A stretch of 64,000 bases of DNA from Promethearchaeia archaeon (GCA_029856125.1 JAHQWJ010000148.1:8588-72587), one strand, 5' to 3'. Counted from the first letter of the stretch, positions 33,079 to 62,950 are shown. Translations and numbers: made by a program. The notes: generated from the sequence alone by a model not told the origin.

Positions 33079-33138
33079 ATCATTATTAAGAATTTTTAAA
33101 AATTCTGTTAATTTATCCAAATAAAGGTGATACATTAA

Positions 33139-34695: not shown

Positions 34696-34705
34696 TATAA
34701 CTCTA

Positions 34706-44951: not shown

Positions 44952-45515
44952 TTAACAGATATTCAATATTTCTTCAATAATTTTCTTAATATAAGATATG
45001 CAATCCTCTAATTTACCTTTTCTTGGAATATGAATAAAAATCACAGGGTAATTATTTTTTGAAATATCTAAAGCCCAATGGTATATATAATTACATAAAT
45101 AGAATCCAGGAAAATAAGAAATAGAGAGCCTTAAGCTATCTTTGAGAGCTTTATAAATTTCTTTTATATTTAAAATTGTATTAAATTTTATTGATTTTTT
45201 TATATTAATAAAACCCATTTTATAAAATCCATCCACATCTTTACCAAAAGCCAAATTTAATGAAAATTTTTCTAAATAAATTCTTTTTTTTGAATGGATT
45301 CCCATAAGTATAACTAAATACGGTTTTACTTTAGTTGACTTTAAGAATTCTAGGTATGACTTGACGCACCTTTTCCAACTAACAGGTAAAATGATTTTTT
45401 CAATAGAATACTGTTGAAAGTTATCATCAAAGTATCTAACAATATCACCACTAAGATTTGAAGAAAGTTTCCCAAATTTCTCAAAACCAGTTAAAAGTAT
45501 CGTATTTTTTATCAT
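44952..45515 (-). CDS. pcp: Pyroglutamyl peptidase I (peptidase C15) family protein
   Basis: 'ILLTGFEKFG', 'YLEKFSLN', 'GFYLCNYIY' and 'IFIHIP' match the Glu-Cys-His contexts. Confidence 0.6.
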   Translation of the reverse strand: MIKNTILLTGFEKFGKLSSNLSGDIVRYFDDNFQQYSIEKIILPVSWKRCVKSYLEFLKSTKVKPYLVILMGIHSKKRIYLEKFSLNLAFGKDVDGFYKMGFINIKKSIKFNTILNIKEIYKALKDSLRLSISYFPGFYLCNYIYHWALDISKNNYPVIFIHIPRKGKLEDCISYIKKIIEEILNIC

Positions 45516-45592: not shown

Positions 45593-46012
45593 TTATTCTA
45601 CGGTTTTGCTTTTTAGTTCATCTGCTTCCAATTTGTCCAATTTTTTCCTCAAAGCTTTAATGTCTGTCTCGTAAGATTTTATTTTTGTCTTTTTCTCTTT
45701 GAGGATATTGTCCAGTTTCTTATTTAAAGCTTTAGTCTTTCCCTTAACTAAATTATCGTATTTCTTTTTTAATGAAGATACTTCCACAGTTAATTTATTC
45801 ATTTTTTTTGTCCATTCTTTAGATTTTTCTGTGGCTTCTTTTAAATCTACTTCACCCACTTCAAGTTTAGATTTGGTATCGTTAATCTTATCATCAAAAT
45901 CAGCTTCAATTTCTTTCTCAGCAGAAGCCTCCTTTTTAGAGGCGTCCTCTTCAACCCTCGTAATCTCGTCTTCCTTTTCTGAGATTTGCGTCCTAATTTC
46001 TTGTTCTGACAT
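45593..46012 (-). CDS. Hypothetical Lys/Glu-rich coiled-coil protein
   Basis: 139-aa ORF with heptad-like K/E pattern. Confidence 0.4.
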   Translation of the reverse strand: MSEQEIRTQISEKEDEITRVEEDASKKEASAEKEIEADFDDKINDTKSKLEVGEVDLKEATEKSKEWTKKMNKLTVEVSSLKKKYDNLVKGKTKALNKKLDNILKEKKTKIKSYETDIKALRKKLDKLEADELKSKTVE

Positions 46013-46169: not shown

Positions 46170-47198
46170 TTAATCTATCGACTCCCCTAAAGCTAATCGA
46201 CAGAGATCGCTAAGGATATAATTTTTTAACCCTTTTCGGCCAACTTTAGAGCCTAAGCTTTCCATACACATAGAACAATTGTAAACGCATGCTTCAGCAT
46301 CATGTTCTATCATATCATCTACGTTATCGCTTTGAGTTTTGCGCCCTAAAGCTTTTTTACCAAGAGTGGCAAATAATCCACCGCAGCATAAAGCGTTTTC
46401 TCGATCGTATTCCCTCTCTACCCTCTCAACACCTATTAATTCGCAAATTTTATCTACCCATTCGTCAACTTCAGGGAGAAAACGATTTGAGCAGGATCTT
46501 TGATAGGCTATTTTCATGCCTAGTTGTTTAACAGCAGATTTATGCTCTTTTAAATAGTTATAGAGATATTCGTAGATGTGAACAGGTTTAAAGCCAGGTG
46601 GAAGATCAATGTTATTTCTAGGACAAAAGGAAGCGTAAAATCCATAGCACTCGTCGTGAAAACATATCATTTCTTTAATACCTTGAGCTTTGATATTTGC
46701 CAATATCATTGGAGCCCTTTCTTTGATAATAGAGTCTCTTCCGTAATGATGATACATTAGGTTGCAAAAAAAGTCAAGGCCACTCACATATTGTAAATTT
46801 TCAAACAACTGCCCTTCCATATTTTTAGCATTTAATTTACCCAATCCACATTTATTTAACACTGGTTTATCAGAGTCAATTTCTTTTAATCTTACTTGAT
46901 CGTGGGGAGCAAATCTATTTACTGTACTCTCAATAATACCAGGGTTTATATTTAACGAATTGTATTTCTCGTGCAATTCTGTTATTAGATCGAAGGGATG
47001 AGATTCATAAGGACAATATTCCTCGCATGCAAAACAAGTAACACAGTCGGACAACACTCGAGATTCTTCCCCGTTGATCATTTTAGTTTTTTCTACTCGC
47101 GCTTCTTCAATATCGCTAAATTCCATCCATTGACAGCGAGTCAAACAATCTATATTTTCACATTTATCACAATTAGATTCGTCGAAAATTTTCTTCAC
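46170..47198 (-). CDS. HdrD-like (Fe-S) CCG-domain protein
   Basis: 342 aa with 'CVTCFACEEYCPY' and the C-terminal 'CCGG' block. Paralog of 47282-48316. Confidence 0.55.
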   Translation of the reverse strand: MKKIFDESNCDKCENIDCLTRCQWMEFSDIEEARVEKTKMINGEESRVLSDCVTCFACEEYCPYESHPFDLITELHEKYNSLNINPGIIESTVNRFAPHDQVRLKEIDSDKPVLNKCGLGKLNAKNMEGQLFENLQYVSGLDFFCNLMYHHYGRDSIIKERAPMILANIKAQGIKEMICFHDECYGFYASFCPRNNIDLPPGFKPVHIYEYLYNYLKEHKSAVKQLGMKIAYQRSCSNRFLPEVDEWVDKICELIGVERVEREYDRENALCCGGLFATLGKKALGRKTQSDNVDDMIEHDAEACVYNCSMCMESLGSKVGRKGLKNYILSDLCRLALGESID

Positions 47199-47281
47199 CC
47201 TTTTATAATTTAGTTTGATTTGTGTATATGTATTTCTCTACACTAATAATAATTATGATGAGATAAAAAAAATAGAAAAAA

Positions 47282-48316
47282 TTAGTATTCCAACTTTTCC
47301 CCTAACGCAAGTCGAGCCAAGTCGCTAATGAAATAGCACTTCATTCCTTTAGCTGTAACTTTCCTTTCTAACGTATCTTTACACATAGGACAATTGAATA
47401 TACAAACCTCAGCACCATGGTCTACCATATCCTGAACGTTGTCATTTTGAGTTTTACGAACGAGATTTTTATGACCCCTCATTGCAAAGGGTGCAGCGCA
47501 ACATAAACCATTTTCTCTATCGTATTTCCTAGCAACCCGTTCTACTCCGATAAGTTCGCATATGTTATCAAGGATTTTATCAGTTTCGGTTACATAACGA
47601 TTGGAACAGTTACGCTGATAAGCGGCTTTAAAGTTTAATTTTGTTATTTCAGATTCGTGATCCTTAAGATAATTATATACATATTCAAATATATGGACGG
47701 GTTTAAAAGGCACTTCAATGTTATTCCTTTGACAATATGAAGTATACAGTCCATAGCATTCGTCATGCCAACAGATGACCTCAGTATCCTTCTTAACACC
47801 AGTTTTTTTGAAGTTTTCAAGAATCAACGGAACTCTTTCCTTGATAATGGAAGGTGTGGCCGTGTGTTGATACATTAATTGACAAAAGAAATGTAAACCA
47901 CCAACTGATTGTAGATCATCAAACATTGGTCCTTTCATTTCTTTTGCATTCGTTTTAGGGAACGCGCACTTATCTAAAATTGGCTTTTCAGGATCAATCG
48001 GGCGTGGTACAAATTCTCCCTTTGCTTTAAACGTATCGATTGCATTTTGAGCAATTGCAGGTAAAATATTTTGAGAACTGTACTTTTCCTGAAGCTCATT
48101 GATTAAGTCAAAAGGATGCGAATTATATGTACAATACTCATCACAGGAAAAACATAGCATACACTCCTTCAAAATACGACAATCCTCATCCTCATTAATC
48201 AATTTAGCAACTTCTTTTCTAGCTGCGTCAATGCTCTCAAAAATGATCCATTGACACTTCATCATACAAGCAACTGTTTTACAATCTTTACAATGCGATT
48301 TATCAAACATATTCAT
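47282..48316 (-). CDS. HdrD-like (Fe-S) CCG-domain protein
   Basis: 344 aa, co-linear with 46170-47198 ('CMLCFSCDEYC', 'LCCAAPF', 'CPMC'). Confidence 0.55.
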   Translation of the reverse strand: MNMFDKSHCKDCKTVACMMKCQWIIFESIDAARKEVAKLINEDEDCRILKECMLCFSCDEYCTYNSHPFDLINELQEKYSSQNILPAIAQNAIDTFKAKGEFVPRPIDPEKPILDKCAFPKTNAKEMKGPMFDDLQSVGGLHFFCQLMYQHTATPSIIKERVPLILENFKKTGVKKDTEVICWHDECYGLYTSYCQRNNIEVPFKPVHIFEYVYNYLKDHESEITKLNFKAAYQRNCSNRYVTETDKILDNICELIGVERVARKYDRENGLCCAAPFAMRGHKNLVRKTQNDNVQDMVDHGAEVCIFNCPMCKDTLERKVTAKGMKCYFISDLARLALGEKLEY

Positions 48317-48409
48317 ACAGCTTTTTGTTATTTTGAATAATTATTATTTATATATTTTTTTATTAGTTTTAATCACGCTACAACCATTATTAATTTTATT
48401 TTCTGGAAT

Positions 48410-48925
48410 TTATTCTTCAATAGTAAATTCCCAAGCGCAATAATAGTTATCTGGATGTTGATCAGGGGGGCAACATATACACTTAGTTTTTATTCTTGGA
48501 TCTATGGTCTTAGCGAAATCTTCGTATTCTATAATTCCTACAGGTTTACAAGGGAAATCCGGAAGTTTTCTTCTTTTTCTAGCAGATTGCACCCGACAAT
48601 CATTCATCCGAAAAACACAACGATTTTCAGAAATCTCTACTGTTTCTTGTATGTTTATATTGGCGTAAACTCTATAATTTAGCGCCTTAACCAATGCTGA
48701 AATTCCTCCATTTTCTTGAATATTGAACCGTCTCATGATTCGTTTTGCTTCAACTATAGTAAATCTTTTCCACTGTGTAGCATCAAGTTCAATGGCTTTC
48801 TCCAATCCAAATTCTCTTTCAACGGCTTGGAACCAAGTTCCATCAATTGCGAGCCAATTCTTGCTTAAATCTTCAATATAGTCTATCAGTTCTTCTTTGG
48901 TTAATCCTTCTAAATCTTTTCTCAT
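48410..48925 (-). CDS. Hypothetical Cys-containing protein
   Basis: 171 aa with the C-terminal cluster 'C..........CICCPPD....YYCAWEF'. No family recognised with confidence. Confidence 0.4.
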   Translation of the reverse strand: MRKDLEGLTKEELIDYIEDLSKNWLAIDGTWFQAVEREFGLEKAIELDATQWKRFTIVEAKRIMRRFNIQENGGISALVKALNYRVYANINIQETVEISENRCVFRMNDCRVQSARKRRKLPDFPCKPVGIIEYEDFAKTIDPRIKTKCICCPPDQHPDNYYCAWEFTIEE

Positions 48926-48949
48926 TATTCCACCACATCATTTTAGTTT

Positions 48950-50662
48950 TTAGTTTTTTTCCTTCCACAATTTACGCAATAAATGTGCTGCCATTTTAGG
49001 TCTTCTATCTCGAGTAAACACACCTTTATAGTTTGTCGATCCCATTCGAGTAATTCCTTGAGATGTTTTAAAGTCACACATATTCCATACATGTTCTCCA
49101 ATTACATAAGGTTTACTCCGACAGACATCAATATATTTTTTTATGAATTCTGTTTGGTATTCTTCGCTAAACATTTCAGGCGGTTGAGAATGCCATCCAG
49201 GAATTGTGTCAGCTCCAAATTCACTAAGAATAATAGGTTTACGATGTTTTTCATATAAATTATCCATTTCTTTTGAAAGGAGTTCGCAAGCTTCATCTAT
49301 GTTTCCTGGTTGCAAATACCATCCATAATATCGATTGATACATAATACTTCGCAGAATTCAAAAGCTTTTTCTTTTACACCCATCATATTTACAACAGTT
49401 ACAGGCCTTGTGTTATCTAAATCTTTTGTCTTGTCGTATAATTTTCTAAAGAATTCCCCAGATTTCAAGCTATTATGGGGTTCGTTTGCTAAACTCCACA
49501 TTATAACGCTTGGATGGTTTTTATCTCTCTTTATTAATACTTCAATGAATTGATCGCATAATTCTTGTTGCCTCTCAATTACATCTTTTCTTAACGTAAG
49601 ACCTACCGCAGGAATTTCGTCAATGACTAAAAAACCAAGGCGATCTGCTAATTCCATCATTTGTTCTGAGTAAGGATAATGCGATGTTCGAAAGGAATTA
49701 GCTCCGATCCAATTCATCAAAGAGTAGTCTTTGATTATTACTGCTGGAACATACCCTCGCCCTGTAATTGGAAAATCCTCGTGACGCCCAAATCCTGTTA
49801 AATAAATGGGTTTACCATTTAATAACAACTTGTCTCCTTTCACTTCAATAGTCCGAATTCCTACTTTAAGCGAATAAGAATCGATTATAGTATCTGCTTT
49901 TACGATCTCAACTATTAGATCGTATAAATTAGGTGTTTCTGGATTCCAAAACTTCGCTTGTTTTACTTCTAAAGTCATTTTTTGAATATTAAGCTCAATT
50001 TTCGATGTATTAGTTATCTCTGAACCAAATCCTTTTAGAGATAGATTCACATAGGCATCATTTAAGCCAACAGTTTCTAAAGTAACATCTAATATTCCCG
50101 TAGTGTCTTTTATAGATGGTCTAACAGTTATGTCTCTTAATCCTTCGTTAGGAATAGCGTAAAGCAAGACTGGTCGATGAATTCCGCAAAAGGGATAAAA
50201 ATCAAAATTAGTTTGCGGATTGTTCATTGGACGCCCGCGAGGTGGCACATGATTATCTGATAACCTCCCATCCACTCTAACTACTAATAAATTATCTTCC
50301 GAGACTATCTTGTCAGATATCTCGTACTCAAAGGGTAGATGTCCTCCCTCGTGATGTCCTACCACCTCTCCATTTAACCTTACATCAGAGAGGTAATTAA
50401 CCGATCCAAACCTAATCATGATTTTCTTTTTATCCCATTCCCTTGGCATCATAAATTTCAGTTGATACCAGGCAGGTCCTAAAAAATCGCGGTCGTCAGC
50501 AAATTGATCGTTCCAACTGGCAGGTACAGCTATTGGACAGCCATTATTAAATCCCTTGGTCCAATTTTCTCCAACCCCTTTATCATCAGGATCAAAACGA
50601 AAATCCCAAAATCCAGATAGGTCTACAAAATGACGATTCTTATTTCTTTGCGGATAGAGCAT
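48950..50662 (-). CDS. Glycoside hydrolase family 2, beta-glucuronidase-like
   Basis: 570 aa. The N-terminus resembles E. coli UidA as I recall it ('L.G.W.F..D....G....W', 'AVPASWNDQFAD', 'WYQ'). Acid/base context 'WSLANEP' and nucleophile context 'ILSEFGADT'. Confidence 0.8.
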   Translation of the reverse strand: MLYPQRNKNRHFVDLSGFWDFRFDPDDKGVGENWTKGFNNGCPIAVPASWNDQFADDRDFLGPAWYQLKFMMPREWDKKKIMIRFGSVNYLSDVRLNGEVVGHHEGGHLPFEYEISDKIVSEDNLLVVRVDGRLSDNHVPPRGRPMNNPQTNFDFYPFCGIHRPVLLYAIPNEGLRDITVRPSIKDTTGILDVTLETVGLNDAYVNLSLKGFGSEITNTSKIELNIQKMTLEVKQAKFWNPETPNLYDLIVEIVKADTIIDSYSLKVGIRTIEVKGDKLLLNGKPIYLTGFGRHEDFPITGRGYVPAVIIKDYSLMNWIGANSFRTSHYPYSEQMMELADRLGFLVIDEIPAVGLTLRKDVIERQQELCDQFIEVLIKRDKNHPSVIMWSLANEPHNSLKSGEFFRKLYDKTKDLDNTRPVTVVNMMGVKEKAFEFCEVLCINRYYGWYLQPGNIDEACELLSKEMDNLYEKHRKPIILSEFGADTIPGWHSQPPEMFSEEYQTEFIKKYIDVCRSKPYVIGEHVWNMCDFKTSQGITRMGSTNYKGVFTRDRRPKMAAHLLRKLWKEKN

Positions 50663-50733
50663 TATAATTCCTCTTTATACGTTATAAATTACAAAAAACT
50701 TCTTGAAATATTAATATAATTGAATCCTCTCAA

Positions 50734-52023
50734 CTACAGTAAGGTCTGAACAAACATCGATATTTTGTCTTTAATAGCCTTTGCCGAGGTTATTCGGGCG
50801 TCTCCAACATCGAAATCAATGACCAACATAGGAATTCCTACTTCGTCCATGAGAGCTTCCCTTAACAGCTGGGGAACGCCTCCAAATTGCTTGCACGCAA
50901 TACTCTGTGTATAAATGAAGCAATCAGCGCTAAAATCTTTTGCCATTCTAATACAATCGTCTAAGAAGGGGTAATAAAACTCAGTTGATTGTTTTATCAT
51001 TGGCCAACCCATAGCTTTTCTGGCCATCTGATAAAATAGAGAATCTAAATCAGCTTTAATATCAACAGGATCTGATAAATTATAGTTAAAGATATCGAGT
51101 AAAACGCTCATCCCCATTTTACGATCCAACCATTCGCATAAAGAAATATCAAAGAAAGTAAGCATGTAAGGCCAGATTGATCTTATCTTTTCTTCGCCTC
51201 CATGATGTTCTTTGTTCTTGTATCTGGATTTTGCGATATCGAGTATCCTACGATAAAAAGAAATGTTTTCAGGAGTTCCAGAAATAATTATCGTTGCTGC
51301 CGCTGAAATTGGATTGAATATGTTTTCAATTGGGCTTGGAACAGCTTTTATTAAGTCAAACAATTCCATTCTTAATTTAGAAACTTCATTCTCTACTTCT
51401 AAAGCCTTTCTCATTTTATAAAAATCGGGTTCTTGACCGATTACTTCCCCCAGACTATGAAGACTTAGCTTTAATTGTTCACCGTAATATTTGTAACTTT
51501 TTTCATCGTGAAGAAAGGGCATATCAGCAATTATTAGAGGAATTTTTTTTTCAAATTGGAAAAAGGGATATGACGCACATGTGGAATCGCATGGCGCTGT
51601 TGGAGTGATAATTGCGTCAAAATGGTACAAGTTTTCTAAACTCATCCCCATTGCTCCTTTTTGTGCGGAACACGTATGAAAGGGATGACCCCAATTTCCA
51701 ATTACATCGTAATACTTTTCAACACCGTTCATTAATAGAGTTCCTAGAAAATAAGAAACTCCTTCAATGCATATAGGTACGCAATCAAAGCATTTAAGAT
51801 AATCAGCTTGAAATGCAAAGTGGTATCCAACGATGGGCACGCCTTCTCGAGCTTTTTCAATATCTCTCCTAACTACCGTTATCATTTCTTCCAAACCTAT
51901 ATTTAAAGAGGGAATTCCTGTTTCGGGAAGGATCTTTTCTACTAACTCGTAGGTCGTTTCCATCGCGTTTAATAACATTTGATAAGGGATAATCCTATTT
52001 TCATTCTTACTTGTAGTATTCAA
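50734..52023 (-). CDS. 2-hydroxyacyl-CoA dehydratase family subunit (larger)
   Basis: 429 aa, homolog of 7929-9248 ('IRSIWPYMLTFFD' versus 'IRIAWPYTHVFFD'). Confidence 0.65.
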   Translation of the reverse strand: MNTTSKNENRIIPYQMLLNAMETTYELVEKILPETGIPSLNIGLEEMITVVRRDIEKAREGVPIVGYHFAFQADYLKCFDCVPICIEGVSYFLGTLLMNGVEKYYDVIGNWGHPFHTCSAQKGAMGMSLENLYHFDAIITPTAPCDSTCASYPFFQFEKKIPLIIADMPFLHDEKSYKYYGEQLKLSLHSLGEVIGQEPDFYKMRKALEVENEVSKLRMELFDLIKAVPSPIENIFNPISAAATIIISGTPENISFYRRILDIAKSRYKNKEHHGGEEKIRSIWPYMLTFFDISLCEWLDRKMGMSVLLDIFNYNLSDPVDIKADLDSLFYQMARKAMGWPMIKQSTEFYYPFLDDCIRMAKDFSADCFIYTQSIACKQFGGVPQLLREALMDEVGIPMLVIDFDVGDARITSAKAIKDKISMFVQTLL

Positions 52024-52069
52024 AAATTCACATCTTTTTGTTTTATTTTTATTCTGAAATTTCTCTAAG

Positions 52070-53218
52070 CTAAATCATTTCTAAAAATGCTTCTATTCTT
52101 GTTTGAAGTCTAGTGGTATCTGCTTGGTAAAATTCGCGATCTAAATTTAATACTGGAATCTCTAAATCCTTTAACTCATGGACATATAACATGTTATCGC
52201 ACCCGTGTAGGTCGCAATTGTTTATTCTTTGTAAGATGACTCCATCAACCTTTGCTCTTTTAATTTCATTTTTTACAAAATCTAATCGTCGTTCGTGATC
52301 GTCCATCATTCTAGGGCAAGACATTCTGTAATACACTCGCTCGACTATGCTTCTTAGTGGATCGCGGTTGAAACCTAAATGAACATCGTCCAGGAAATTG
52401 CGAGTTCCAAAGCATAAAAAATCGCTAACAATTAAGGCTCCAGAATCTTCTATTAATCCAGTAAAATCAGTGCTGTCAACTTCACTTCCAACAAGCATGA
52501 TTCTTTTCGCGTTGGATTTAACACCTTCGCTTTCTTTTAAGGTGTTGATAATTCGTTCTAATTCCCGGTTAGCAGCTTCTTTGGGAATTGAATTGTTCGA
52601 CATTGATATCTGTAACGCTTCACTACCGGTAATTTTGGGAGCGTCAATAACTCTCATTTCGTGGATTTCCCGTAAAAGTTCACGATTCTTATTGTAGATG
52701 TTAATTGTTTCAAGTAAATCTTGATTAGTTATGGTTTCTAGATTAAATTTTTCTTCTAATTCAGTTTTTAATTCTTTTATCTCATCATAATACCATTCAA
52801 AGCCTTCATCCGTAATAACATGAGGGATAGAGTAGTAAAATTGAGAAGCTGGTTTGGGATAATCTTTTCTCCTAAATACTTTTAAATCGAAAAGTTCAAA
52901 CATTCGGCGAGAGTGATCGCAGGAATTACAAATCAAGAGACCATCCAAAAAATCATAGATACCTCTTAGAGCCATATCAAATGTTGCGCGAACAAAAGAG
53001 CATGTAAATCGTACCATATATACATCCGCCAGATTCGTTTCTGTATTCCCCGTTGCTCGTATTCGATATGGTAATAAATTCGCAGCATATAAGAGTTCAT
53101 CCGGGATATAAGTACAATAGTATCCTAAAACTTTCTTACCGTCTGCTAGCCATTCTGTTATGTAGGGATTAGATATTGAGTCTGAAATATGAAGAAATTG
53201 ATCGTTTTTTAAGCTCAC
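52070..53218 (-). CDS. 2-hydroxyacyl-CoA dehydratase family subunit (smaller)
   Basis: 382 aa, homolog of 6802-7923 ('GKKVLGYYCTYIPDELLYAANLLPYRI'). The GTG start overlaps the upstream stop (GTGA). Confidence 0.7.
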   Translation of the reverse strand: MSLKNDQFLHISDSISNPYITEWLADGKKVLGYYCTYIPDELLYAANLLPYRIRATGNTETNLADVYMVRFTCSFVRATFDMALRGIYDFLDGLLICNSCDHSRRMFELFDLKVFRRKDYPKPASQFYYSIPHVITDEGFEWYYDEIKELKTELEEKFNLETITNQDLLETINIYNKNRELLREIHEMRVIDAPKITGSEALQISMSNNSIPKEAANRELERIINTLKESEGVKSNAKRIMLVGSEVDSTDFTGLIEDSGALIVSDFLCFGTRNFLDDVHLGFNRDPLRSIVERVYYRMSCPRMMDDHERRLDFVKNEIKRAKVDGVILQRINNCDLHGCDNMLYVHELKDLEIPVLNLDREFYQADTTRLQTRIEAFLEMI

Positions 53219-53712
53219 GCAAATAAGCCTCCTTTGTAACTATAAACCTCGTGTTTTCCAATCATAAGACATCTTATTAGCTTAATGGCGGCTACATAGG
53301 ATCCTTTAATTTTTGCTTTACCGGGGATTATATACTTCATTAATTTTATTAAACTGAAAAGGTTGTTCTTAGAGCGAATCATGCTACTAATCACACCAAG
53401 GATTTTTTCTTCTTCGACAGTTATAATGAGCCTTGCTACTGGACTGTTAGCTTTTTCGGCACGACAGTCAAAATTTCCCCTTTCGGATGTAAGAATAAAT
53501 GTAATATATCCATCTAATTCGGCGAAATACATTTCTATTTCCTGGCCGTTATGTTTTCCTACTTTTTTAAATGGAGCGTCAAGCCCAAATAAATCTACTA
53601 ACATTTTTGCTAATCTTGCTATGGTTAATACTTTAGTTTCTCTTAATAAGTCGTCTGCTCTAGAATCAATGCTTGTCTTTTCTTGGTCTTCAATTTGACT
53701 AATAATAACCAC
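53215..53712 (-). CDS. Hypothetical protein, possibly SCP2-like
   Basis: 165 aa. 'YIIPGKAKIKGSYVAAIKLIRCL' fits the SCP2 C-terminal pattern. Confidence 0.35.
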   Translation of the reverse strand: MVIISQIEDQEKTSIDSRADDLLRETKVLTIARLAKMLVDLFGLDAPFKKVGKHNGQEIEMYFAELDGYITFILTSERGNFDCRAEKANSPVARLIITVEEEKILGVISSMIRSKNNLFSLIKLMKYIIPGKAKIKGSYVAAIKLIRCLMIGKHEVYSYKGGLFA

Positions 53713-54007
53713 TAAATTCTTATTTTTTTGAAGCCTTTGCCTAGAAATTATATTAGTTAGATTAGTTAATAAAGTTAAAGATTTTGTTTATAAAGTACGA
53801 GAATCATCCGACACGACTTTTTTTTTAAAAACTCCTTGTTTAAAGGGAGAAAAGTAGGCAAATCGCTTGATTTATCAAAGGAAAAGTTTAATAACATTTT
53901 CAATTTCAATAACTTGTATCTATTTTGTTCACAAATAGATTAAATTAAGACTATCAATAAAATAAAAAAATAAAAAATAAAACTAAATTGATTGGTTATA
54001 AGTTATT

Positions 54008-55927
54008 ATGGGGAAAACTTTAACTGAAAAAATAATAGAAGAGCACTTGGTTGATGGTAAATCAGAACGAGGAACGGATATTAGTATAAAAATTGACCAA
54101 ACTCTAACCCAAGATGCTACTGGTACAATGGCTTATTTACAATTCGAAGCGATAGGTATACCTCGAATACAGACAGAATTATCGGTTTCTTATGTAGATC
54201 ACAATACTTTACAAACTGATTTTAAGAATCCCGACGATCACAGATATTTACAAAGTATTGCTGCTAAATACGGACTTTATTTTTCTCGCCCAGGAAATGG
54301 AATTTGTCACCAACTTCATCTGGAACGCTTTGCACGCCCTGGAAAAACTTTATTAGGGAGCGATAGCCACACACCAACTGGTGGAGGCGTAGGCATGATT
54401 GCGGTTGGAGCTGGAGGACTTGACGTAGCAGCTGCGATTGCAGGAGAATCTTTCCATTTAAAAATGCCTAAGGTTGTAAACGTGCTTCTTACTGGAAAAC
54501 TACCTGATTTTGTGTCAGCAAAGGACGTGATTCTCGAAGTCTTAAAGAGAATTGGTGTTAAAGGGGCAGTTAATAAAGTGTTGGAATATACTGGCCCAGG
54601 AGTTAAGACTTTAAGCGTGCCTGAAAGAGGTACAATAACAAATATGGGAACTGAAACGGGAGCTACAACCTCAATATTTCCTTCCGACGAGATCACAAAA
54701 GAATTCTTGATTGCTCAAGAAAGAGGAGAACAATGGGTTCTTTTGGAGCCAGATGAAGGTGCTTTATACGACGAAACCATAGAAATAAATCTAAACGAGC
54801 TCGTTCCTCTTGTATCCTTACCTCATAGTCCAGGCAATGTAAAAACAGTAAAGGAAGTAGAAGGATTAAAAGTTGATCAAGTTTGTATTGGGAGTTGTAC
54901 GAACTCAACTTTAAGGGATCTTAAAGTTTCTGCCAACATTTTAAAAGGAAAAACTATAAGCGAGAATACAGTTTTAACTGTCTCACCTGGTTCTCGTCAA
55001 GTTGTTGATCACATGATAACATCTGGCGAGATGGCATATTTAATTGAAGCGGGAGCAAGAATTCTCGAAAACGCATGCGGCCCATGTATTGGTATGGGAC
55101 TGGCGCCAAAAACTGATGCCGTTACTTTAAGAACTTTTAATAGAAATTTTCTTGGAAGATCTGGAACTAAGAGCGCCCAAGCTTATCTTGTAAGCCCCGA
55201 AACTGCGGCTGTATCTGCAATTCATGGCAAGATTACGGATCCAAGATCTTTTGGAAAATTACCAGAAATAAAAATGCCAGAAAAATTTATGGTTAACGAT
55301 AACATGATTATTCCACCAAAAACAGGTATGGAATCTATTGAAATCGTTCGTGGTCCTAACATCAAACCTTTACCAGAATTCAACCCGTTACCAGATAAAT
55401 TAGAAGGAGAAGTTCTTCTTAAAGTTGAGGACGATATTACCACAGACCATATAATGCCCGCAGGCGCTAAAATATTGCCTTTAAGGTCAAATATTCCAGA
55501 GATAAGCAAGTTTGTGTTTAACCTTGTTGATCCAACCTTCCCTGACAGATCCTTAGAGAAGGGAGGAGGGTTTATCGTTGGAGGAGATAACTATGGTCAA
55601 GGTTCCAGTAGAGAACACGCAGCTATAGCACCAAAATATCTCGGACTTAAAGCAGTCATAGTGAAATCGTTTGCTCGAATCCATCTAGCTAACCTTGTAA
55701 ACTTTGGCATCGTGCCATTAACATTTGCAAATAAAGACGATTATGCTAAGGTCGAACAAGGAGATAAGTTTGAAATCGATCTAACCACGATAGAATCAGG
55801 AAATGTAGCACTAAAGAATCTCACTAAAGGTATTGAAATCAAACTGACTCATTCTTTAAGCGAGACAGAGATTAAAGTTCTAAAAGCGGGAGGAAAACTT
55901 CCGTTCATAAAACAAAAACACAGCTAA
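54008..55927 (+). CDS. Aconitate hydratase (aconitase-family, fused catalytic + swivel domains)
   Basis: 639 aa with 'IDQTLTQDATG', 'GSDSHT', 'IGSCTN', 'ACGPCIGMG' and a swivel domain containing 'GGDNYGQGSSREHAA'. Confidence 0.8.
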   Translation: MGKTLTEKIIEEHLVDGKSERGTDISIKIDQTLTQDATGTMAYLQFEAIGIPRIQTELSVSYVDHNTLQTDFKNPDDHRYLQSIAAKYGLYFSRPGNGICHQLHLERFARPGKTLLGSDSHTPTGGGVGMIAVGAGGLDVAAAIAGESFHLKMPKVVNVLLTGKLPDFVSAKDVILEVLKRIGVKGAVNKVLEYTGPGVKTLSVPERGTITNMGTETGATTSIFPSDEITKEFLIAQERGEQWVLLEPDEGALYDETIEINLNELVPLVSLPHSPGNVKTVKEVEGLKVDQVCIGSCTNSTLRDLKVSANILKGKTISENTVLTVSPGSRQVVDHMITSGEMAYLIEAGARILENACGPCIGMGLAPKTDAVTLRTFNRNFLGRSGTKSAQAYLVSPETAAVSAIHGKITDPRSFGKLPEIKMPEKFMVNDNMIIPPKTGMESIEIVRGPNIKPLPEFNPLPDKLEGEVLLKVEDDITTDHIMPAGAKILPLRSNIPEISKFVFNLVDPTFPDRSLEKGGGFIVGGDNYGQGSSREHAAIAPKYLGLKAVIVKSFARIHLANLVNFGIVPLTFANKDDYAKVEQGDKFEIDLTTIESGNVALKNLTKGIEIKLTHSLSETEIKVLKAGGKLPFIKQKHS

Positions 55928-57462: not shown

Positions 57463-57594
57463 CATTTAGGGCGATCTTTTGTTTAATAAAAATATACTTT
57501 TTAAACCAATATTTATTGTATTTATATTAGTGCTTTTTATTTATTTTAAAAACATCGAAATTAGTTAAGCATAAAGCACTTGAAGGCATTTAAA

Positions 57595-59955
57595 ATGAAT
57601 GAGCGAATAAAAAAACTACGAGCACAAAGTCGTAGAGCAATTCCGTATCTTTCATTGGAACGTGCTTTATTAATAACAGATTTTTATAAGAAAGGAGCAG
57701 CTCATAAATATTCTGCTCCAGTTGCTAGAGCTAAGGCATATGAATATATTCTAAAAAATAAAGAAATTTGTTTTAATGACGATGAGCTTATTATTGGAGA
57801 ACGTGGTTCAAAACCGAAGGCGACTCCATCTTACCCAGAAGTTTGTTGTCATACGTTAAATGATTTAGAGATATTAGATTCTCGCGAAAAAATATCTTAT
57901 AAAGTGCAGGACGAAGTGCGGCAAAAATCTAAAGATATCGTCATTCCATTTTGGAAAGGAAAAACAATTAGAGAAAAAATCTTTTCTCAGGTCGACCAAG
58001 AGTGGGTAGATGCCTATTCAGCAGGAATTTATACCGAATTCATGGAACAAAGGGCTCCTGGGCATACTGTAGCTGGAAAGAATATTTGGAACATGGGTTT
58101 TATGGATTTTAAAAAACGAATTCAAGTTTCAATCGAGAACTTAGATTTTTACAACGATCAAGACGCTTTCAACAAAAGAGAGCAATTAAAGGGGATGGAT
58201 ATAGCCGCTGATGCTATAATTATGTATGCTAAAAGGCATTCTGAAAAAGCTCGAAATTTAGCTGAGAACGAGCCTGATCCAATTAGAAGAACTGAATTAG
58301 AAAAAATCGCTGAAATTTGCTCACACGTTCCAGCTCAGGCTCCAAGAACTTTCTGGGAAGCTCTACAACATTACTGGTTTATTCATTTAGGTGTTATTAC
58401 GGAATATAATACTTGGGATGCCTTTAATCCCGGACGGCTAGATCAACATTTATACCCTTTTTACAAGAAAGATCTTTCTGAAGGCATTTTAACAAAAGAG
58501 TGTGCCGTCGAACTGCTCCAAGCTTTCTGGATCAAGTTTAATAACCAACCAGCACCTCCAAAAGTTGGTGTAACGGCCGAAGAAAGCGGTACTTACACAG
58601 ATTTTTGCAATATTAATCTCGGAGGGCTAAAAGAGGATGGTTCTGATGGAGTAAACGAACTGTCTTACGTACTTTTAGATGTAATTGAAGATATGAGAAT
58701 ACTACAGCCTAGTAGTAACATTCAAATAAGTGAAAAAACTCCAGACGATTTTATTAAAAGAGCCCTTAAGATTGTTAAAACCGGTTTTGGTCAACCATCA
58801 GTTTTTAATGCAGATGCTATTATTCAAGAACTTACACGCCAAGGAAAATCGGTACTAGATGCTCGAAACGGTGGTGCGAGTGGATGTGTTGAAACAGGAG
58901 CTTTTGGAAAGGAAGCCTATATATTAACAGGATACTTTAATCTTGTCAAAATTTTAGAAGTTACTTTACATAATGGAAGCGATCCTTTAACGGGTAAACA
59001 AGTTGGATTAAAGACGGGAGATCCTACATCTTTTAGTACTTTTCACGAGTTGCTCGAAGCGTATACAAAGCAAATCCAGCATTTTGTTGATATAAAAATA
59101 AAAGGTAATCTAATAATAGAACGGATATGGGCACAAAATCCCGCCCCATTTTTATCAATTATTATTGACGATTGCATCTTAAATGGAAAAGATTATAATG
59201 ATGGTGGAGCTAAATACAATACATCCTACATTCAAATAGTTGGCATGGGAAGCATAACTGATTGCTTAGTTTCTTTAAAATATAATGTTTATGACAATAA
59301 TATTTATACTATGGAACAGATGCTCGAAGCGCTCAAAAATGACTTTGAAAGTTTTGAGGAAATAAGGCAAAAACTGATTTCTAGAACGCCTAAATATGGG
59401 AACGATAAAGATTACGCCGATCTTATCACCCAACAAGTTTTCGAGATTGTTTTTAGTGCCATTGACGGGCGCCCGAACACTAGAGGAGGAGTTCATAGAA
59501 TTAATCTTCTTCCTACAACAGTCCACATTTATTTTGGAAAGGTAACTGGTGCCACACCCGATGGTAGAAAAGCGTTTACACCTTTATCTGAAGGGATTTC
59601 GCCGGTCCAAGGGATGGATATTAACGGTCCAACCTCAGTAATAAAGTCAGCCGGTAAAATTGACCATCTTCGAACTGGAGGGTCTTTATTAAATCAAAAA
59701 TTTTCACCTAAATTCTTTTCAAGTGAATCAGGTATTAATAATGTAGCTCATCTAATTCGTTCTTATTTTAAAATGGGAGGTCACCATATCCAGTTTAACG
59801 TAGTATCGGCAAAAACCTTACGCGCTGCTCAAAACGATCCAGTACAATATCATAATCTAATTGTTCGCGTAGCAGGTTATAGCGATTATTATGTAAACCT
59901 AGAAAGAGATTTGCAGGACGAAATCATTAAAAGAACCGAACATCTCTCTGTGTAA
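57595..59955 (+). CDS. Glycyl radical enzyme, PFL2/dehydratase-lyase type
   Basis: Glycyl radical motif 'RVAGYS' (59866-59883) and Cys loop 'GGASGCVETG' (Cys codon 58885-58887). I prefer the ATG at 57595 over the TTG at 57580. Confidence 0.85.
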   Translation: MNERIKKLRAQSRRAIPYLSLERALLITDFYKKGAAHKYSAPVARAKAYEYILKNKEICFNDDELIIGERGSKPKATPSYPEVCCHTLNDLEILDSREKISYKVQDEVRQKSKDIVIPFWKGKTIREKIFSQVDQEWVDAYSAGIYTEFMEQRAPGHTVAGKNIWNMGFMDFKKRIQVSIENLDFYNDQDAFNKREQLKGMDIAADAIIMYAKRHSEKARNLAENEPDPIRRTELEKIAEICSHVPAQAPRTFWEALQHYWFIHLGVITEYNTWDAFNPGRLDQHLYPFYKKDLSEGILTKECAVELLQAFWIKFNNQPAPPKVGVTAEESGTYTDFCNINLGGLKEDGSDGVNELSYVLLDVIEDMRILQPSSNIQISEKTPDDFIKRALKIVKTGFGQPSVFNADAIIQELTRQGKSVLDARNGGASGCVETGAFGKEAYILTGYFNLVKILEVTLHNGSDPLTGKQVGLKTGDPTSFSTFHELLEAYTKQIQHFVDIKIKGNLIIERIWAQNPAPFLSIIIDDCILNGKDYNDGGAKYNTSYIQIVGMGSITDCLVSLKYNVYDNNIYTMEQMLEALKNDFESFEEIRQKLISRTPKYGNDKDYADLITQQVFEIVFSAIDGRPNTRGGVHRINLLPTTVHIYFGKVTGATPDGRKAFTPLSEGISPVQGMDINGPTSVIKSAGKIDHLRTGGSLLNQKFSPKFFSSESGINNVAHLIRSYFKMGGHHIQFNVVSAKTLRAAQNDPVQYHNLIVRVAGYSDYYVNLERDLQDEIIKRTEHLSV

Positions 59956-60003
59956 TTTGCCAAAATTAGAAAAATTTTTAGTTTAAGAAAGACTCTAAGA
60001 ATT

Positions 60004-60693
60004 ATGGCACCAGAACCTCAAGTCATGATGGAAACAACTTTCAATGTTATCTATTTGATTTACATTTGTGTTATTGTTATACTCATGTCAAAAAATATGA
60101 GTAAGGTAACTCAAAAAGAATTAGCTACAGCAAAAAGAATACGGCTAGCTTTTTTAGCTTTGTTTATCGGCGATTTAGGGCATGTAGGAGCTCGCTTAAT
60201 CGCTCTTTTCTCGGGAGATGTAGATTTGAATTACATTGTATTAGGAATCGGGACTCTATTTGAGATGGTTGGTTTAATCTTTCTCTTTATGATTTACACA
60301 GATGCTTGGAGGGTACATTTTGATCATCAAAAGAGTGTACTGTTTAAAGTATTAGTTGGCGTAGGAATAGTAGGATTGATTATTTTTGTATTTCCTCAAA
60401 ACCAATGGACCGCTCCAACAGCTCCATACGAATGGCAGGTAATTCGAAACATTCCCTGGGTGATACAAGGAATTGCGTTATCCATATTAATATTTCGTGA
60501 TGCGAAAGCGGCTCATGACAAACAACTACTAAGAATTGGTATTTACATCTTTGTATCGTTCTTCTTCTACACACCAGTGCTCTTCTTCGGAGAATTAGCC
60601 CCTATGCTTGGTATGCTCATGATAATAGGAACTTTGATTTACATGCTTTGGCAATATACGTCCTACAGTCGCTTCTTCAAGCAGAGAGAATAA
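60004..60693 (+). CDS. Seven-helix integral membrane protein of unknown function
   Basis: 229 aa with seven hydrophobic segments by eye. Confidence 0.5.
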   Translation: MAPEPQVMMETTFNVIYLIYICVIVILMSKNMSKVTQKELATAKRIRLAFLALFIGDLGHVGARLIALFSGDVDLNYIVLGIGTLFEMVGLIFLFMIYTDAWRVHFDHQKSVLFKVLVGVGIVGLIIFVFPQNQWTAPTAPYEWQVIRNIPWVIQGIALSILIFRDAKAAHDKQLLRIGIYIFVSFFFYTPVLFFGELAPMLGMLMIIGTLIYMLWQYTSYSRFFKQRE

Positions 60694-60739
60694 AAAAAAT
60701 AGAAAATTTTTTTCCTTGTTCTTTTTATTGATTGTTTCC

Positions 60740-62950
60740 CTAAAATCGAAATTTACTTTCCATAATTTTATTATAAATATCTTTAGTCAGAAGGACATAC
60801 CCTGAACTTTCCGGTAAATACGTATAGATTGCATCATTTGTTTTATTGATATCAAAATTTTCTTTCTTCATATCGGATTTTTGTATTTTAAAGGTGCTTG
60901 TTGTTGATAACTTCGATGAAAAGCGTATAAACTTAGGGATAGCGTACCGGGGTAAGTCAGTTTGTAATATTTCAAATAGACTTTTAAAGTTAAATTCAGT
61001 ATGAGCTTTTGTTGCGATTATAGATGCCATTCCAGCTCGACCATTAGTAGATGGGATTTCGACACCATAAACAGATGAGTGGTTGATTTCCTCAAAAGAA
61101 GCTAGAACATCTTCGACTTCAGATGTAGATACGTTCTCTCCTTTCCAACGGAAAGTATCGCCAAGGCGGTCTACAAATTGAGCATGGTAAAATCCAATAT
61201 TCCTGATCAAATCTCCTGTATTTAACCAGATTTCATTATTTCCAAATGAATTCCGAAATATTTTTCGTTCAGTGGCTTCTTTATTTTTATAACCGGCGAA
61301 AGTAGTTCCATCTCGAATTTTTATCAATAATAACCCTGCTTCGCCGTCATCCACGTTTTGAAAATAGCCCTTTTCATTTTCTACTGGTTTATCGGCATCG
61401 ATGTCATATTTAACAATTGTGTAGGGTTCAAAATTACATCCAATTGTTCGATCCAAATTTAAATAATTGCAGAACATTCCTCTAATCTCAGTTGCTCCAT
61501 AATGTTCAATCACTTCTCGTATACCAAAACGCTCCTTGAATTCGTTCCAAATCTCTGGTTTAAGTCCGTTACCACAGACTTTGTAGACATTATGATTACG
61601 ATCATTAGGATTGGGAGGCTGATTTAAAAGATACCTGCATAATTCCCCAATATAGTTAAAACAGGTAACATTGTACTTTCTAACATCTTTCCAGAAATTT
61701 CGGACGCTAAATTTACGAGCTAAAGCTACTGCTGAACCACCACAAATAGCGGAACTCCAACCAATATGCATCGCGTTGCTGTGAAATAACGGAAGAGTGA
61801 TATACATAACATCGTCAGGATGCATATCCATCGCCATCCGCCCCCAACCATTAATGGCCCCCGCCATGTGAATATTCCGCATAGGGCTTGCTTTTGGAAA
61901 CCCAGTTGTTCCTGAAGTAAATATATAGGCATACGGATCTTTTCCTATAACTTCATCTATTGTAGAAGGTGTAGTCGTACTTTCGTTTTTGACTTCCTTC
62001 TTTAGGTCGATGAAACCTTCAGGTAACCCCAATTCACCTTTATCTTCCAAAAAATAAAGCTTATCATCATTAGAAAGCTCCAGTTTAGAAATAACGTTTT
62101 TAAATGCAGGATATAATTCTTCGCCGACTATGTATGCTTTTACTTTGTTTACTTTTAAACTATGTACTAATGACGCTGATCTCTGTCTTGTGTTAATTAA
62201 TGACGCACTTGAACCTATTTTTGTCATAGCACCGACGATAAACATTAACTCAGGCCGGTTTTCTAAAAAAACATTGATTGTATCTCCCCTTTTAATACCA
62301 ATTTTTATAAAGTAATTAGCGTAACGATTCATTATTTCGTTAAGTTCTCGGTGGGTGTATTTGATGTCCTCATACAAAACGGCAGGTCGATTAGGGTAAG
62401 TTTCGGCATTATATTCAAAATAAGTGCCTACCGACAATTTTTCGTTTGGAATCATAGTTTTAGCGATATTAGCTGCAGTAAAAAGAGAATTTAAACGCCA
62501 ATCAATAGAAAGTATTCCAAATATGAAATCTTTATAGCGGAGCTTGTAACCAGTTATTGATTTGGATTGAATCTCAAGATCTGGACTTATTGGTCCTAAA
62601 AATCCTTCAAATGTAGCAATTAGTTGGTGAAGAAATCGTTTTAAAGAAGAACTGTTCTCTAAGCGAGATAGTAGTTCATCTTCGCCTTTGGGTGTTATCT
62701 TGTACCACATTTCACCGTCAAATTTATATTCTTCTACGAAATCGTTAGTTTTTAAAGCTTCTATCCATTTGTCGAAAACTTTCTCATCTAACCGATCGAC
62801 AATAGAATTCTTATGATCATTGAGAAATTCCTGCAATTTATGAGGGCCATAGACTGCTAAAACGAATAGAATAATGTTGTCGTATTTATCTTCCTTTTTA
62901 TCTCTCAAAATTCTTTTAGGAATTTTAGCTGGAATTGTGTTAATCATCAT
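60740..62950 (-). CDS. FATP / very-long-chain acyl-CoA synthetase-type AMP-forming ligase with N-terminal wHTH-like extension
   Basis: 736 aa with 'YIFTSGTTGFPKA' and the FATP signature 'DRLGDTFRWKGENVST'. The first ~130 aa look winged-helix-like ('YKITPKGEDELL'). Confidence 0.8.
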   Translation of the reverse strand: MMINTIPAKIPKRILRDKKEDKYDNIILFVLAVYGPHKLQEFLNDHKNSIVDRLDEKVFDKWIEALKTNDFVEEYKFDGEMWYKITPKGEDELLSRLENSSSLKRFLHQLIATFEGFLGPISPDLEIQSKSITGYKLRYKDFIFGILSIDWRLNSLFTAANIAKTMIPNEKLSVGTYFEYNAETYPNRPAVLYEDIKYTHRELNEIMNRYANYFIKIGIKRGDTINVFLENRPELMFIVGAMTKIGSSASLINTRQRSASLVHSLKVNKVKAYIVGEELYPAFKNVISKLELSNDDKLYFLEDKGELGLPEGFIDLKKEVKNESTTTPSTIDEVIGKDPYAYIFTSGTTGFPKASPMRNIHMAGAINGWGRMAMDMHPDDVMYITLPLFHSNAMHIGWSSAICGGSAVALARKFSVRNFWKDVRKYNVTCFNYIGELCRYLLNQPPNPNDRNHNVYKVCGNGLKPEIWNEFKERFGIREVIEHYGATEIRGMFCNYLNLDRTIGCNFEPYTIVKYDIDADKPVENEKGYFQNVDDGEAGLLLIKIRDGTTFAGYKNKEATERKIFRNSFGNNEIWLNTGDLIRNIGFYHAQFVDRLGDTFRWKGENVSTSEVEDVLASFEEINHSSVYGVEIPSTNGRAGMASIIATKAHTEFNFKSLFEILQTDLPRYAIPKFIRFSSKLSTTSTFKIQKSDMKKENFDINKTNDAIYTYLPESSGYVLLTKDIYNKIMESKFRF

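Follow-up and report, generated by a model that had tools for sequence, protein, structure and literature searches.

Gene content of the locus

The locus described here lies on a 64,000-nucleotide stretch of DNA from a Promethearchaeia archaeon (GCA_029856125.1, JAHQWJ010000148.1:8588-72587; the whole stretch is called the window below, and positions are counted from its first nucleotide). Seven minus-strand open reading frames (ORFs) were recovered by ORF listing at positions 46170-53712, and they encoded a putative radical enzyme of the benzoyl-CoA reductase/2-hydroxyacyl-CoA dehydratase (BCR/HAD) family together with a small orphan protein, a beta-glucuronidase (GUS) of glycoside hydrolase family 2 (GH2), a DUF6125 protein, and two HdrD-like CCG-domain proteins. 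The gene list, order, strand, and spacings given in an initial annotation made from the DNA alone were reproduced by the ORF listing, and most of the domains by Pfam and NCBIfam. In transcription order, the seven genes were as follows:

53215-53712, minus strand: orf165, 165 amino acids (aa), GTG start
52070-53218, minus strand: hgdS, small HGD-D subunit, 382 aa, GTG start
50734-52023, minus strand: hgdL, large HGD-D subunit, 429 aa, TTG start
48950-50662, minus strand: GH2 beta-glucuronidase, 570 aa
48410-48925, minus strand: DUF6125 protein, 171 aa
47282-48316, minus strand: HdrD-like protein 1, 344 aa
46170-47198, minus strand: HdrD-like protein 2, 342 aa

The first two genes shared a GTGA overlap, and the subsequent gaps were 46, 71, 24, 93, and 83 nt. 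The identical gene order was present in independent metagenome assemblies, which ruled out an assembly artefact. The window had ~34% GC and was Asgard archaeal DNA, its host being an Asgard archaeon of the Lokiarchaeia type; because the host is archaeal, the bacterial logic of Shine-Dalgarno sequences, sigma-70 promoters, intrinsic terminators, and operons is inapplicable. The reading favored below, with a rough probability of 0.55, is that the seven genes make up a conserved neighborhood of three modules, not one dedicated pathway.

The orf165–hgdS–hgdL trio

Both HGD-D subunits were encoded side by side, and each matched Pfam HGD-D (PF06050; 283 bits for hgdS and 145 bits for hgdL). The best solved relatives of hgdS were BzdN (8S02_B; E 6e-41), HadC, and the double-cubane cluster protein (DCCP). 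The [8Fe-9S] ligands of BzdN are Cys36/73/100/263/293/327 (PMC11971306), and they paired one-to-one in a HMMER alignment with Cys35/73/100/269/301/335 of hgdS, all six of which were invariant in 67/67 Asgard homologs; from these cysteines, hgdS is predicted to hold an [8Fe-9S] double cubane. Cofactors form a series across this family: two double cubanes are present in DCCP; in BzdNO, a single double cubane is combined with a catalytic [4Fe-4S]-OH2 cluster; and in the dehydratases, a catalytic [4Fe-4S] cluster is accompanied by a [4Fe-5S] remnant in a 3-Cys small subunit from which the distal cubane is gone (PMC11971306). Unlike this dehydratase pattern, hgdS kept the three distal cysteines C35, C269, and C301. 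Its best NCBIfam match was the DCCP family NF040772 (193.6 vs. a cut-off of 350); its HadC score was 153.2 vs. a cut-off of 700, and the BzdN and BcrC scores fell far under their cut-offs.

The only solved relative detected for hgdL was DCCP (E 5e-5); a phmmer search of PDB gave no match of hgdL to BzdO at E<0.01, and its NCBIfam scores were 14.7 for BcrB (cut-off 486) and 37.8 for HadB (cut-off 750). The Asgard homologs of hgdL were 57-97% identical, and the closest named ones (61-87% identical) came from Hermodarchaeota, Promethearchaeota/Lokiarchaeota, Hodarchaeota, and Heimdallarchaeota metagenome-assembled genomes (MAGs). Alignment to hgdS with hhalign placed C118, C145, and C377 of hgdL at the proximal-cubane positions, as Cys95/128/380 of BzdO, and C357 at one distal position, with the equivalents of C35 and C269 missing. 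Eight cysteines were invariant in hgdL: C78, C81, C85, C118, C145, C357, C368, and C377. The motif C78-x2-C81-x3-C85 together with C357 and C368 lay outside the predicted 3-Cys site; these extra cysteines might belong to a further or altered metal site, one without a counterpart in BzdO and HadB. At one related locus (L066, 9998-11290), hgdL was split between two ORFs with profile scores of 449 and 320, although tblastn aligned it in a single piece; the split could reflect a sequencing error, a stop codon in frame, or a pseudogene.

Judged by its cysteines, the layout of hgdS/hgdL is of the BzdNO type, not of the dehydratase type. The initial annotation had called the pair a dehydratase pair; the HGD-D fold stood for both subunits, but the name was imprecise, the cysteines being of the BzdN/double-cubane type. 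A classical HadBC/HgdAB dehydratase was rejected on the six-Cys pattern of hgdS and the scores far under the cut-offs, and a benzoyl-CoA reductase was rejected because hgdL was unrelated to BzdO; benzoyl-CoA is, on these comparisons, a very unlikely substrate.

The pair was compared with three known systems. (i) BzdNO (PDB 8S02; PMC11971306) is likewise a heterodimer of HGD-D-fold subunits, and the six ligands in hgdS and the 3-Cys site in hgdL correspond to it, but the seven-gene unit contained no adjacent BzdPQ/BcrAD ATPase module or ferredoxin, while it had the extra conserved 165-aa orphan gene and the five additional invariant cysteines of hgdL. (ii) HadBC, HgdAB, and FldBC, with the activators HadI/HgdC, share the HGD-D fold, the two-subunit composition, and the expected dependence on a BcrAD/HgdC-type activase, and the GlcD/GlcF-type hydroxyacid dehydrogenases adjoining the trio in paralogous loci (see below) would fit 2-hydroxyacid metabolism; they differ from the present pair in the six-Cys pattern of hgdS and in that no activase was encoded with it. 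(iii) DCCP (PDB 6ENO; NF040772) aligned with hgdS over the full length, including the six cluster cysteines, but it is a homodimer with a double cubane per subunit and is normally encoded beside its own reductase DCCP-R, while hgdL lacked two of the six positions.

The third member of the trio, orf165, had ~60 orthologs of 158-167 aa, directly upstream of hgdS, and its stop codon overlapped or abutted the hgdS start throughout the orthologous loci. The family comprised 488 database homologs, none with a Pfam domain and every named one from Asgard archaea; these homologs and orthologs established orf165 as a real conserved gene despite its lack of a Pfam match. The initial annotation had described it as SCP2-like, and of this the gene itself stood, while the likeness found weak support: SCP2 was the commonest weak Pfam match, reached by 5/22 orthologs with a best E of 0.0014 but not by the window protein itself; PDB sequences, searched with a profile, returned no meaningful match; and the AlphaFold2 (AF2) model was poor (predicted local distance difference test [pLDDT] 53), with UbiJ-SCP2 as top Foldseek match at E 0.07 and template modelling (TM) scores of 0.27-0.30. 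The protein is possibly SCP2-like, and it probably serves the HGD-type enzyme as an accessory or as a third subunit.

Full-text searches of the literature yielded no paper on DUF6125, Asgard 2-hydroxyacyl-CoA dehydratases, or this cluster, and the initial annotation was judged correct in knowing of no pathway that connects these activities. In Asgard papers, bcr-like genes appear solely as candidates for benzoyl-CoA reductase or as transferred genes; where aromatic or amino-acid metabolism is inferred, such genes go under the name 'benzoyl-CoA reductase' or 'dehydratase'. The double-cubane pattern has so far been tied to one defined function, that of BzdNO; given the hgdS pattern, an hgdL of uncharacterized type, and an Asgard-only orf165, neither benzoyl-CoA reduction nor classical hydroxyacid dehydration should be ascribed to such genes in metabolic reconstructions. 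What is new here, as far as gene content and alignments indicate, is a trio with an orphan subunit, a predicted double-cubane small subunit, a novel putative catalytic subunit, no activase in cis, and CCG partners (see below), and this enzyme system is widespread in Asgard archaea and uncharacterized.

Synteny across related Asgard loci

The proteins of the window were mapped by tblastn and by profile search over all ORFs to 76 loci, which came from a scan of species-representative genomes and were nearly all titled Asgard MAGs (few had another or no taxon). The trio orf165–hgdS–hgdL was found in nearly every locus having upstream sequence, occasionally with an extra hgdL paralog. Two arrangements were distinguished downstream of it: (i) type 1, in ~28 loci (26 by script plus L066 and L072), with DUF6125, one or two HdrD-like genes, a coiled-coil protein gene, and a pyroglutamyl-peptidase-like gene; and (ii) type 2, in 20 loci, with a gene for a GlcD-like FAD oxidase, beginning no more than 125 nt away in 17/20, and one for a GlcF-like protein that carries two CCG domains. 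A further ~14 loci had neither module. A same-strand CCG module was thus present downstream of the trio in ~48 of the ~62 loci with enough downstream sequence (about three quarters).

The following features flanked the seven genes in the window:

54008-55927, plus strand: aconitase-family gene, conserved and divergent from orf165 (976 bits, NCBIfam aconitate hydratase)
53713-54007: divergent intergenic region, 295 nt, AT-rich (GC 0.22), with TATA-like motifs
45593-46012, minus strand: coiled-coil protein, 139 aa, conserved downstream neighbor (identified by domain matches)
44952-45515, minus strand: pyroglutamyl-peptidase-like protein, conserved downstream neighbor (identified by domain matches)

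The aconitase-family gene lay divergently upstream in at least 23 loci and was usual where upstream sequence existed. Most type 1 loci kept the coiled-coil and pyroglutamyl-peptidase-like genes in synteny, downstream of the HdrD-like gene. From its position, the 295-nt divergent region is a plausible promoter site.

Activase and electron supply

A profile scan found no BcrAD_BadFG domain in or next to the seven-gene unit, confirming what had initially been noted about the missing activase; the sole copy in the window was located beside another HGD pair, 36 kb away from hgdS/hgdL:

9267-10037, plus strand: BcrAD/HgdC-type activase (Pfam BcrAD_BadFG, 206 bits)
10090-11349: GlcF-like protein with two CCG domains
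11333-12754: GlcD-like FAD oxidase

This second HGD pair (6802-9248; 373 plus 442 aa) with its activase was convergent to the GlcF-like and GlcD-like genes, and a GlcD/GlcF pair like that at 10090-12754 trailed the trio in the 20 paralogous type 2 loci.

An activase gene was located within 10 kb of the trio in 2/76 loci and was missing from this range in the other 74, and in the locus L012 a single activase (83% identical to that at 9267-10037) was found among three HGD-type sets. The initial annotation had left three options for the pair: it could rely on the distant activase, be reduced by way of the HdrD-like proteins, or catalyse a different radical reaction. The first is the best supported, because an activase occurred near the trio in so few loci and because one activase accompanied three HGD sets in L012: the ATPase at 9267-10037, as a candidate, most plausibly serves hgdS/hgdL in trans, by analogy with characterized BCR/HAD members, which need electrons at or below about -600 mV and reach this potential by ATP hydrolysis (PMC11971306).

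DUF6125 and the HdrD-like proteins

The DUF6125 protein (Pfam DUF6125, 267 bits), encoded 24 nt after GH2, had 4244 homologs at E<=1e-5, and the best 120 of these 4244 were all at least 76% identical. Its AF2 model (pLDDT 81.8; predicted TM score 0.79) had as top Foldseek matches in PDB the phenol-sensor domains of PoxR, MopR, and DmpR (TM 0.57-0.60, probability 1.0, E 2.5e-3), followed by TRAPP Bet3 and H-NOX, all of which belong to the V4R-type superfamily of ligand-binding domains, and there was no sequence-level Pfam V4R match. The cysteines C103, C110, C126, C149, and C163 were invariant and C152 nearly so; C126, C149, and C163 were located in the C-terminal part, positionally comparable to the zinc region of DmpR (C151/E172/C177/C185). 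The protein is therefore likened, in its predicted fold, to V4R/PoxR-MopR-DmpR domains and to TRAPPC3 (Bet3), and its C-terminal cysteines were found where PoxR, DmpR, and Thor-TRAPPC3 bind Zn; it differs from PoxR, MopR, and DmpR in being a stand-alone protein of 171 aa without an AAA+ or DNA-binding domain. In strain MK-D1, a published study on Asgard TRAPPC3/V4R proteins noted a V4R protein described as 'PoxR-like', for which a Zn site was predicted; this protein may be the DUF6125 ortholog.

DUF6125 is thus predicted by modelling to adopt a V4R/PoxR-like small-ligand-binding fold, and its C-terminal cysteines may form a putative Zn site. The initial annotation had named it a Cys-cluster protein; the predicted fold fits a V4R-like ligand-binding domain better. 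An Fe-S electron carrier was considered and rejected, the predicted fold being that of a ligand-binding domain, and ligand binding with a structural metal site appears the more likely function of the modelled protein.

DUF6125 was followed by an HdrD-like gene in almost all type 1 loci, and HdrD-like protein 2 was conserved in nearly all type 1 loci, with an ortholog after DUF6125 in ~25 loci. The two HdrD-like proteins of the window were paralogs with 55% identity, each with a weak single CCG match in Pfam: (i) 26.3 bits at residues 232-316 in HdrD-like protein 1, which displayed a Cys-rich ferredoxin-like N-terminus, a degenerate CCG region, and one canonical CCG domain; and (ii) 29.1 bits in HdrD-like protein 2, which alone also had a Fer4_10 match (21.6 bits, under its cut-off). 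By eye, one canonical CxxCxxCxxxCP motif and one atypical motif were seen in these proteins. NCBIfam gave HdrD-like protein 2 only sub-threshold matches (LdhH, GlcF, HmcF, and 'diclust_near_Sec'), and sequence searches detected no significant solved relative for either protein. The initial description as two tandem HdrD-like CCG paralogs accordingly stood as to the CCG domain of each and their paralogy, while no NCBIfam family was reached. The N-terminal ferredoxin-like Cys motif and the C-terminal CCG domain with CX35CCX35CXXC were shared with HdrD, GlcF, and LutA, but the window proteins had one weak Pfam CCG each with a degenerate first CCG region, and the seven-gene unit encoded no HdrE, GlcD, or flavoprotein partner.

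The beta-glucuronidase and its variable slot

All three Pfam domains Glyco_hydro_2_N, Glyco_hydro_2, and Glyco_hydro_2_C were detected in the GH2 protein, which scored 604.7 bits against the 544 cut-off of the NCBIfam beta-glucuronidase equivalog PRK10150/NF007538, aligned full length with solved bacterial glucuronidases (E ~1e-135), and was 42% identical to E. coli GUS (in the E. coli reference sequence used, the expected residues fell at the expected numbers). In the alignment, the catalytic glutamates E394 and E481 corresponded to E. coli E413 and E504, and N544 and K546 corresponded to N566 and K568 of the N-x-K motif for glucuronate-carboxylate recognition; Y449, R539, W526, D154, and H328 matching E. 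coli GUS were also retained. These active-site residues were kept in 10/10 Asgard orthologs, while an unrelated GH2 protein in L071 lacked the N-x-K residues. The initial call of a beta-glucuronidase-like enzyme was borne out by the curated cut-off and the glucuronate-recognizing N-x-K residues, and by these sequence features the gene encodes a bona fide beta-glucuronidase. Within its known family the enzyme was unremarkable, and only the host was unusual. Its nearest 50%-cluster representatives (55% and at most 49% identical) were named only 'beta-glucuronidase'.

Its Loop 1 region was 17 aa shorter than that of E. coli GUS and fell outside the Loop 1 (L1) class; the enzyme is thus, as aligned, of the no-loop class and still within the beta-glucuronidase family. 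It had no N-terminal extension and is thus taken as cytoplasmic. In the gut-GUS classification of Pollet et al. in 2017, no-loop GUS reportedly favors oligosaccharides and larger glycans over small aglycone, drug-type glucuronides. Compared to the bacterial enzymes (E. coli UidA and gut GUS), it shared the three-domain GH2 structure, the catalytic glutamates, the N-x-K motif, and the active-site Tyr/Arg/Trp, but was archaeal-encoded, missed Loop 1, and had no adjacent glucuronide transporter or uronate genes. Uronate catabolism had been proposed initially as a check, and a Pfam search of nearly all window ORFs of at least 120 aa found no UxaC, UxuA/B, KdgK, or KdgA. Two adjacent major facilitator superfamily (MFS) transporters were found at 23982-26901, ~22 kb from GH2, the first being of the GPH/MFS_2 type, a family that includes the E. 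coli glucuronide permease; they are the sole candidate for a possible link to glucuronide uptake.

Among the 76 loci, GH2 was present between hgdL and DUF6125 in 11 (L003, L004, L006 [partial], L010, L027, L033, L039, L045, L066, L068, and L077). The synteny of GH2 with the HGD genes, on which the initial grouping had depended, was thus found again, in a restricted set of related Asgard lineages. Another 11 loci had an empty slot, with DUF6125 ~20-513 nt after hgdL, and the following other occupants were seen:

L025 and L031: sulfatase directly upstream of DUF6125, same strand
L025: second sulfatase plus a GH94-like protein
L014: esterase and metallo-beta-lactamase (MBL)-fold genes
L050: MBL-fold gene, assigned by ~70% identity to the L014 MBL protein
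L005: GyrI-like/DUF6144 protein
L077, and L033 by ~90% similarity to L077: BKACE plus 3-hydroxyacyl-CoA dehydrogenase, opposite strand
L045: NMO-family gene, opposite strand

The slot sulfatases (L025, 3243-10065; L031, 7557-9077) bore an SGSH_C domain, and the GH94-like protein of L025 was 903 aa long; this content suggests sulfated-glycan use. A radical SAM/SPASM gene of the general type that matures anaerobic sulfatases was present in the window at 37495-38544, and no sulfatase was seen there.

Pairwise identities differed between the parts of the GH2-bearing loci. hgdS, hgdL, DUF6125, and aconitase of L039 were 92-98% identical to those of L010, L045, and L027, but its GH2 (12681-14381) was merely 68-69% identical to the GH2s of these three loci, themselves 93-95% identical; this indicates that the GH2 gene of L039 was replaced or recombined at a fixed position. 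Between groups of GH2-bearing loci, hgdL and hgdS were 55-69% and 59-75% identical, respectively, while in the flanks aconitase was 84-95% and DUF6125 72-85% identical (79-85% without the outlier L033), the trio being far more divergent than the flanks. GH2, the trio, and the flanks therefore have separate histories, and the hgdL–DUF6125 junction behaves like an insertion-tolerant boundary between units. The glucuronide-derived substrate proposed initially for the dehydratase-family pair found no support, since GH2 was absent from most orthologous loci and stood in a heterogeneous slot with a history of its own.

Interpretation of the seven-gene neighborhood

As set out above, the seven genes are read as a conserved neighborhood of three modules. 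(i) The trio orf165–hgdS–hgdL would be an Asgard-specific BCR/HAD-family radical enzyme: hgdS would accept and store low-potential electrons on its [8Fe-9S] double cubane, and an acyl-CoA-type substrate would be reduced or dehydrated radically at the 3-Cys [4Fe-4S] site of hgdL; the electrons would come from the ATP-hydrolysing BcrAD/HgdC-type activase acting in trans (9267-10037), probably shared among the HGD-type paralogs. (ii) The cytoplasmic no-loop GUS would free glucuronate from imported glucuronides or oligosaccharides by a chemistry independent of the trio; within this reading, GH2 would be optional cargo, a passenger in the variable slot with its own function. (iii) DUF6125 and the one or two divergent CCG proteins most likely act as a redox or substrate-handling partner step, not as an activase replacement; they are assigned to the trio pathway because they occupy the position of GlcD/GlcF in the paralogous loci, and the assignment goes by analogy with these. 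A single pathway leading from glucuronides to the radical enzyme is unlikely, and the idea of a glucuronidase-dehydratase pathway is largely explained away: some Asgard lineages bear a bacterial-type GUS, and it should not be counted into the pathway of the radical enzyme.

Several points weigh against the three-module reading. The [8Fe-9S] assignment is based only on aligned cysteines, five invariant cysteines of hgdL (C78, C81, C85, C357, and C368) are unexplained by it, and activation in trans by the ATPase at 9267-10037 is a proposal only. All seven genes were co-oriented with gaps of at most 93 nt, and GH2 kept its position over substantial divergence (GH2 identity 65-91%), which selection for co-expression could explain. 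Both alternative occupants found directly before DUF6125, the glucuronidase and the sulfatase, are deconjugating hydrolases, hinting at a theme and not at random cargo. The second HdrD-like paralog was present in 7/9 loci with GH2 vs. 0/14 without, a difference confounded by relatedness.

In an integrated deconjugation route, a hydrophobic or aromatic aglycone would be released by the hydrolase in the slot (the glucuronidase here, a sulfatase or esterase at other loci), DUF6125 and perhaps orf165 would bind it, and, after CoA activation, it would undergo a BzdNO-like reduction or dehydroxylation with the HdrD-like proteins handling electrons. The tight co-oriented spacing (24-34 nt between GH2 and DUF6125 in five loci and 10-59 nt between sulfatase and DUF6125), the nature of the hydrolases directly before DUF6125, its best structural matches to phenol-binding sensor domains, the closeness of hgdS to BzdN as the subunit of an aromatic-ring reductase, and the retention of GH2 at its position in 11 loci all speak for such a route. 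It is nevertheless unlikely: the hydrolase was missing in 11 orthologous loci that were otherwise complete, the other inserts were unrelated and often on the opposite strand (BKACE, 3-hydroxyacyl-CoA dehydrogenase, NMO, MBL, and repeat protein), the modules had separate histories, hgdL and BzdO shared no detectable similarity, the unit encoded neither a CoA ligase nor a CoA transferase, no uronate catabolism genes were found in the window, and a no-loop GUS reportedly prefers oligosaccharides to small aglycone glucuronides.

Equally improbable is the opposite extreme, in which the neighbors beyond the trio are functionally unrelated and are kept together by kinship and rare rearrangement in Lokiarchaeia. 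Unrelated genes were indeed conserved within the block (aconitase, methyltransferase, FMN reductase, coiled-coil protein, and pyroglutamyl-peptidase-like protein), and the hgdL–DUF6125 slot tolerated many insertions, as a unit boundary would. T-runs and TATA-like motifs, catalogued by script, point the same way: a T6 run was found 36 nt past the hgdL stop, T6 and T8 runs immediately past the stop of HdrD-like protein 1, and a TATA-like motif 38 nt upstream of the HdrD-like protein 1 gene, while the 46-nt and 24-nt gaps contained no T-run; these signals suggest separate transcription units and agree weakly with several of them, as they also do with the three-module reading, being weak evidence because the intergenic DNA is ~80% A+T. 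Archaeal gene order usually decays at ~60% protein identity unless it is selected. The block persisted to ~60% protein identity, which counts against mere descent, and the link between trio and CCG genes recurred in a second paralogous arrangement in 20 loci, which one ancestral block does not explain.

For the electron supply of the trio, an activase-free scheme, in which the DUF6125/HdrD-like module (GlcD/GlcF in the paralogous loci) feeds the double cubane of hgdS and spares ATP, is less probable still than either of the foregoing. HdrD/GlcF-type CCG proteins operate at much higher potentials than the approximately -600 mV or lower that family members attain through ATP hydrolysis (see above), no bifurcating flavoprotein was encoded in the unit, GlcD/GlcF beside an HGD enzyme reads naturally as a 2-hydroxyacid dehydrogenase step, an activase gene was present in the window, and ~14 trio loci had no CCG module nearby. 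These points outweigh the same-strand CCG module behind the trio in ~48/~62 loci and two independent paralogous arrangements, the near-universal absence of an activase in cis, and the GlcD/GlcF-like pair that likewise adjoins the other HGD set of the window at 10090-12754. A three-protein double-cubane enzyme, present in several copies per genome, powered by CCG modules without an activase, and supplied, in the lineage of this window, with hydrophobic or aromatic substrates that deconjugating hydrolases (glucuronidase, sulfatase) release and DUF6125 binds, is just as remote. The recurrent CCG pairing and the nearly always missing cis activase pose a testable question: what drives low-potential radical chemistry in archaea that are short of energy?

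Other features of the window

The tRNA scan and the Rfam search found no non-coding RNA in the window. A glycyl-radical enzyme (791 aa, PFL-like plus Gly_radical) was encoded in the region 57580-62950, followed by a 229-aa ORF without a Pfam match and an AMP-binding gene in convergent orientation (736 aa, acyl-CoA synthetase-like). In the metagenome contigs L079 and L080, the glycyl-radical enzyme likewise adjoined the conserved block. The region 31603-37359 contained two FAD_binding_4 oxidases of 491 aa each, together with an NMO-family gene and another GlcF-like protein bearing two CCG domains, and three separate FAD-oxidase/CCG sets were present within the 64-kb window. At 19975-21538, a short CdhC-like protein was paired with a CooC/MinD-like ATPase; a pair of the same kind was found in L024 (14171-15763) directly after the GlcD/GlcF genes trailing the trio, and the CdhC-like proteins of the window and L024 were 253-260 aa long. 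At 722-3522, three successive plus-strand ORFs of 302-306 aa without a Pfam match, which may be tandem paralogs of an uncharacterized family, were followed by a 301-aa hexapeptide-repeat protein.

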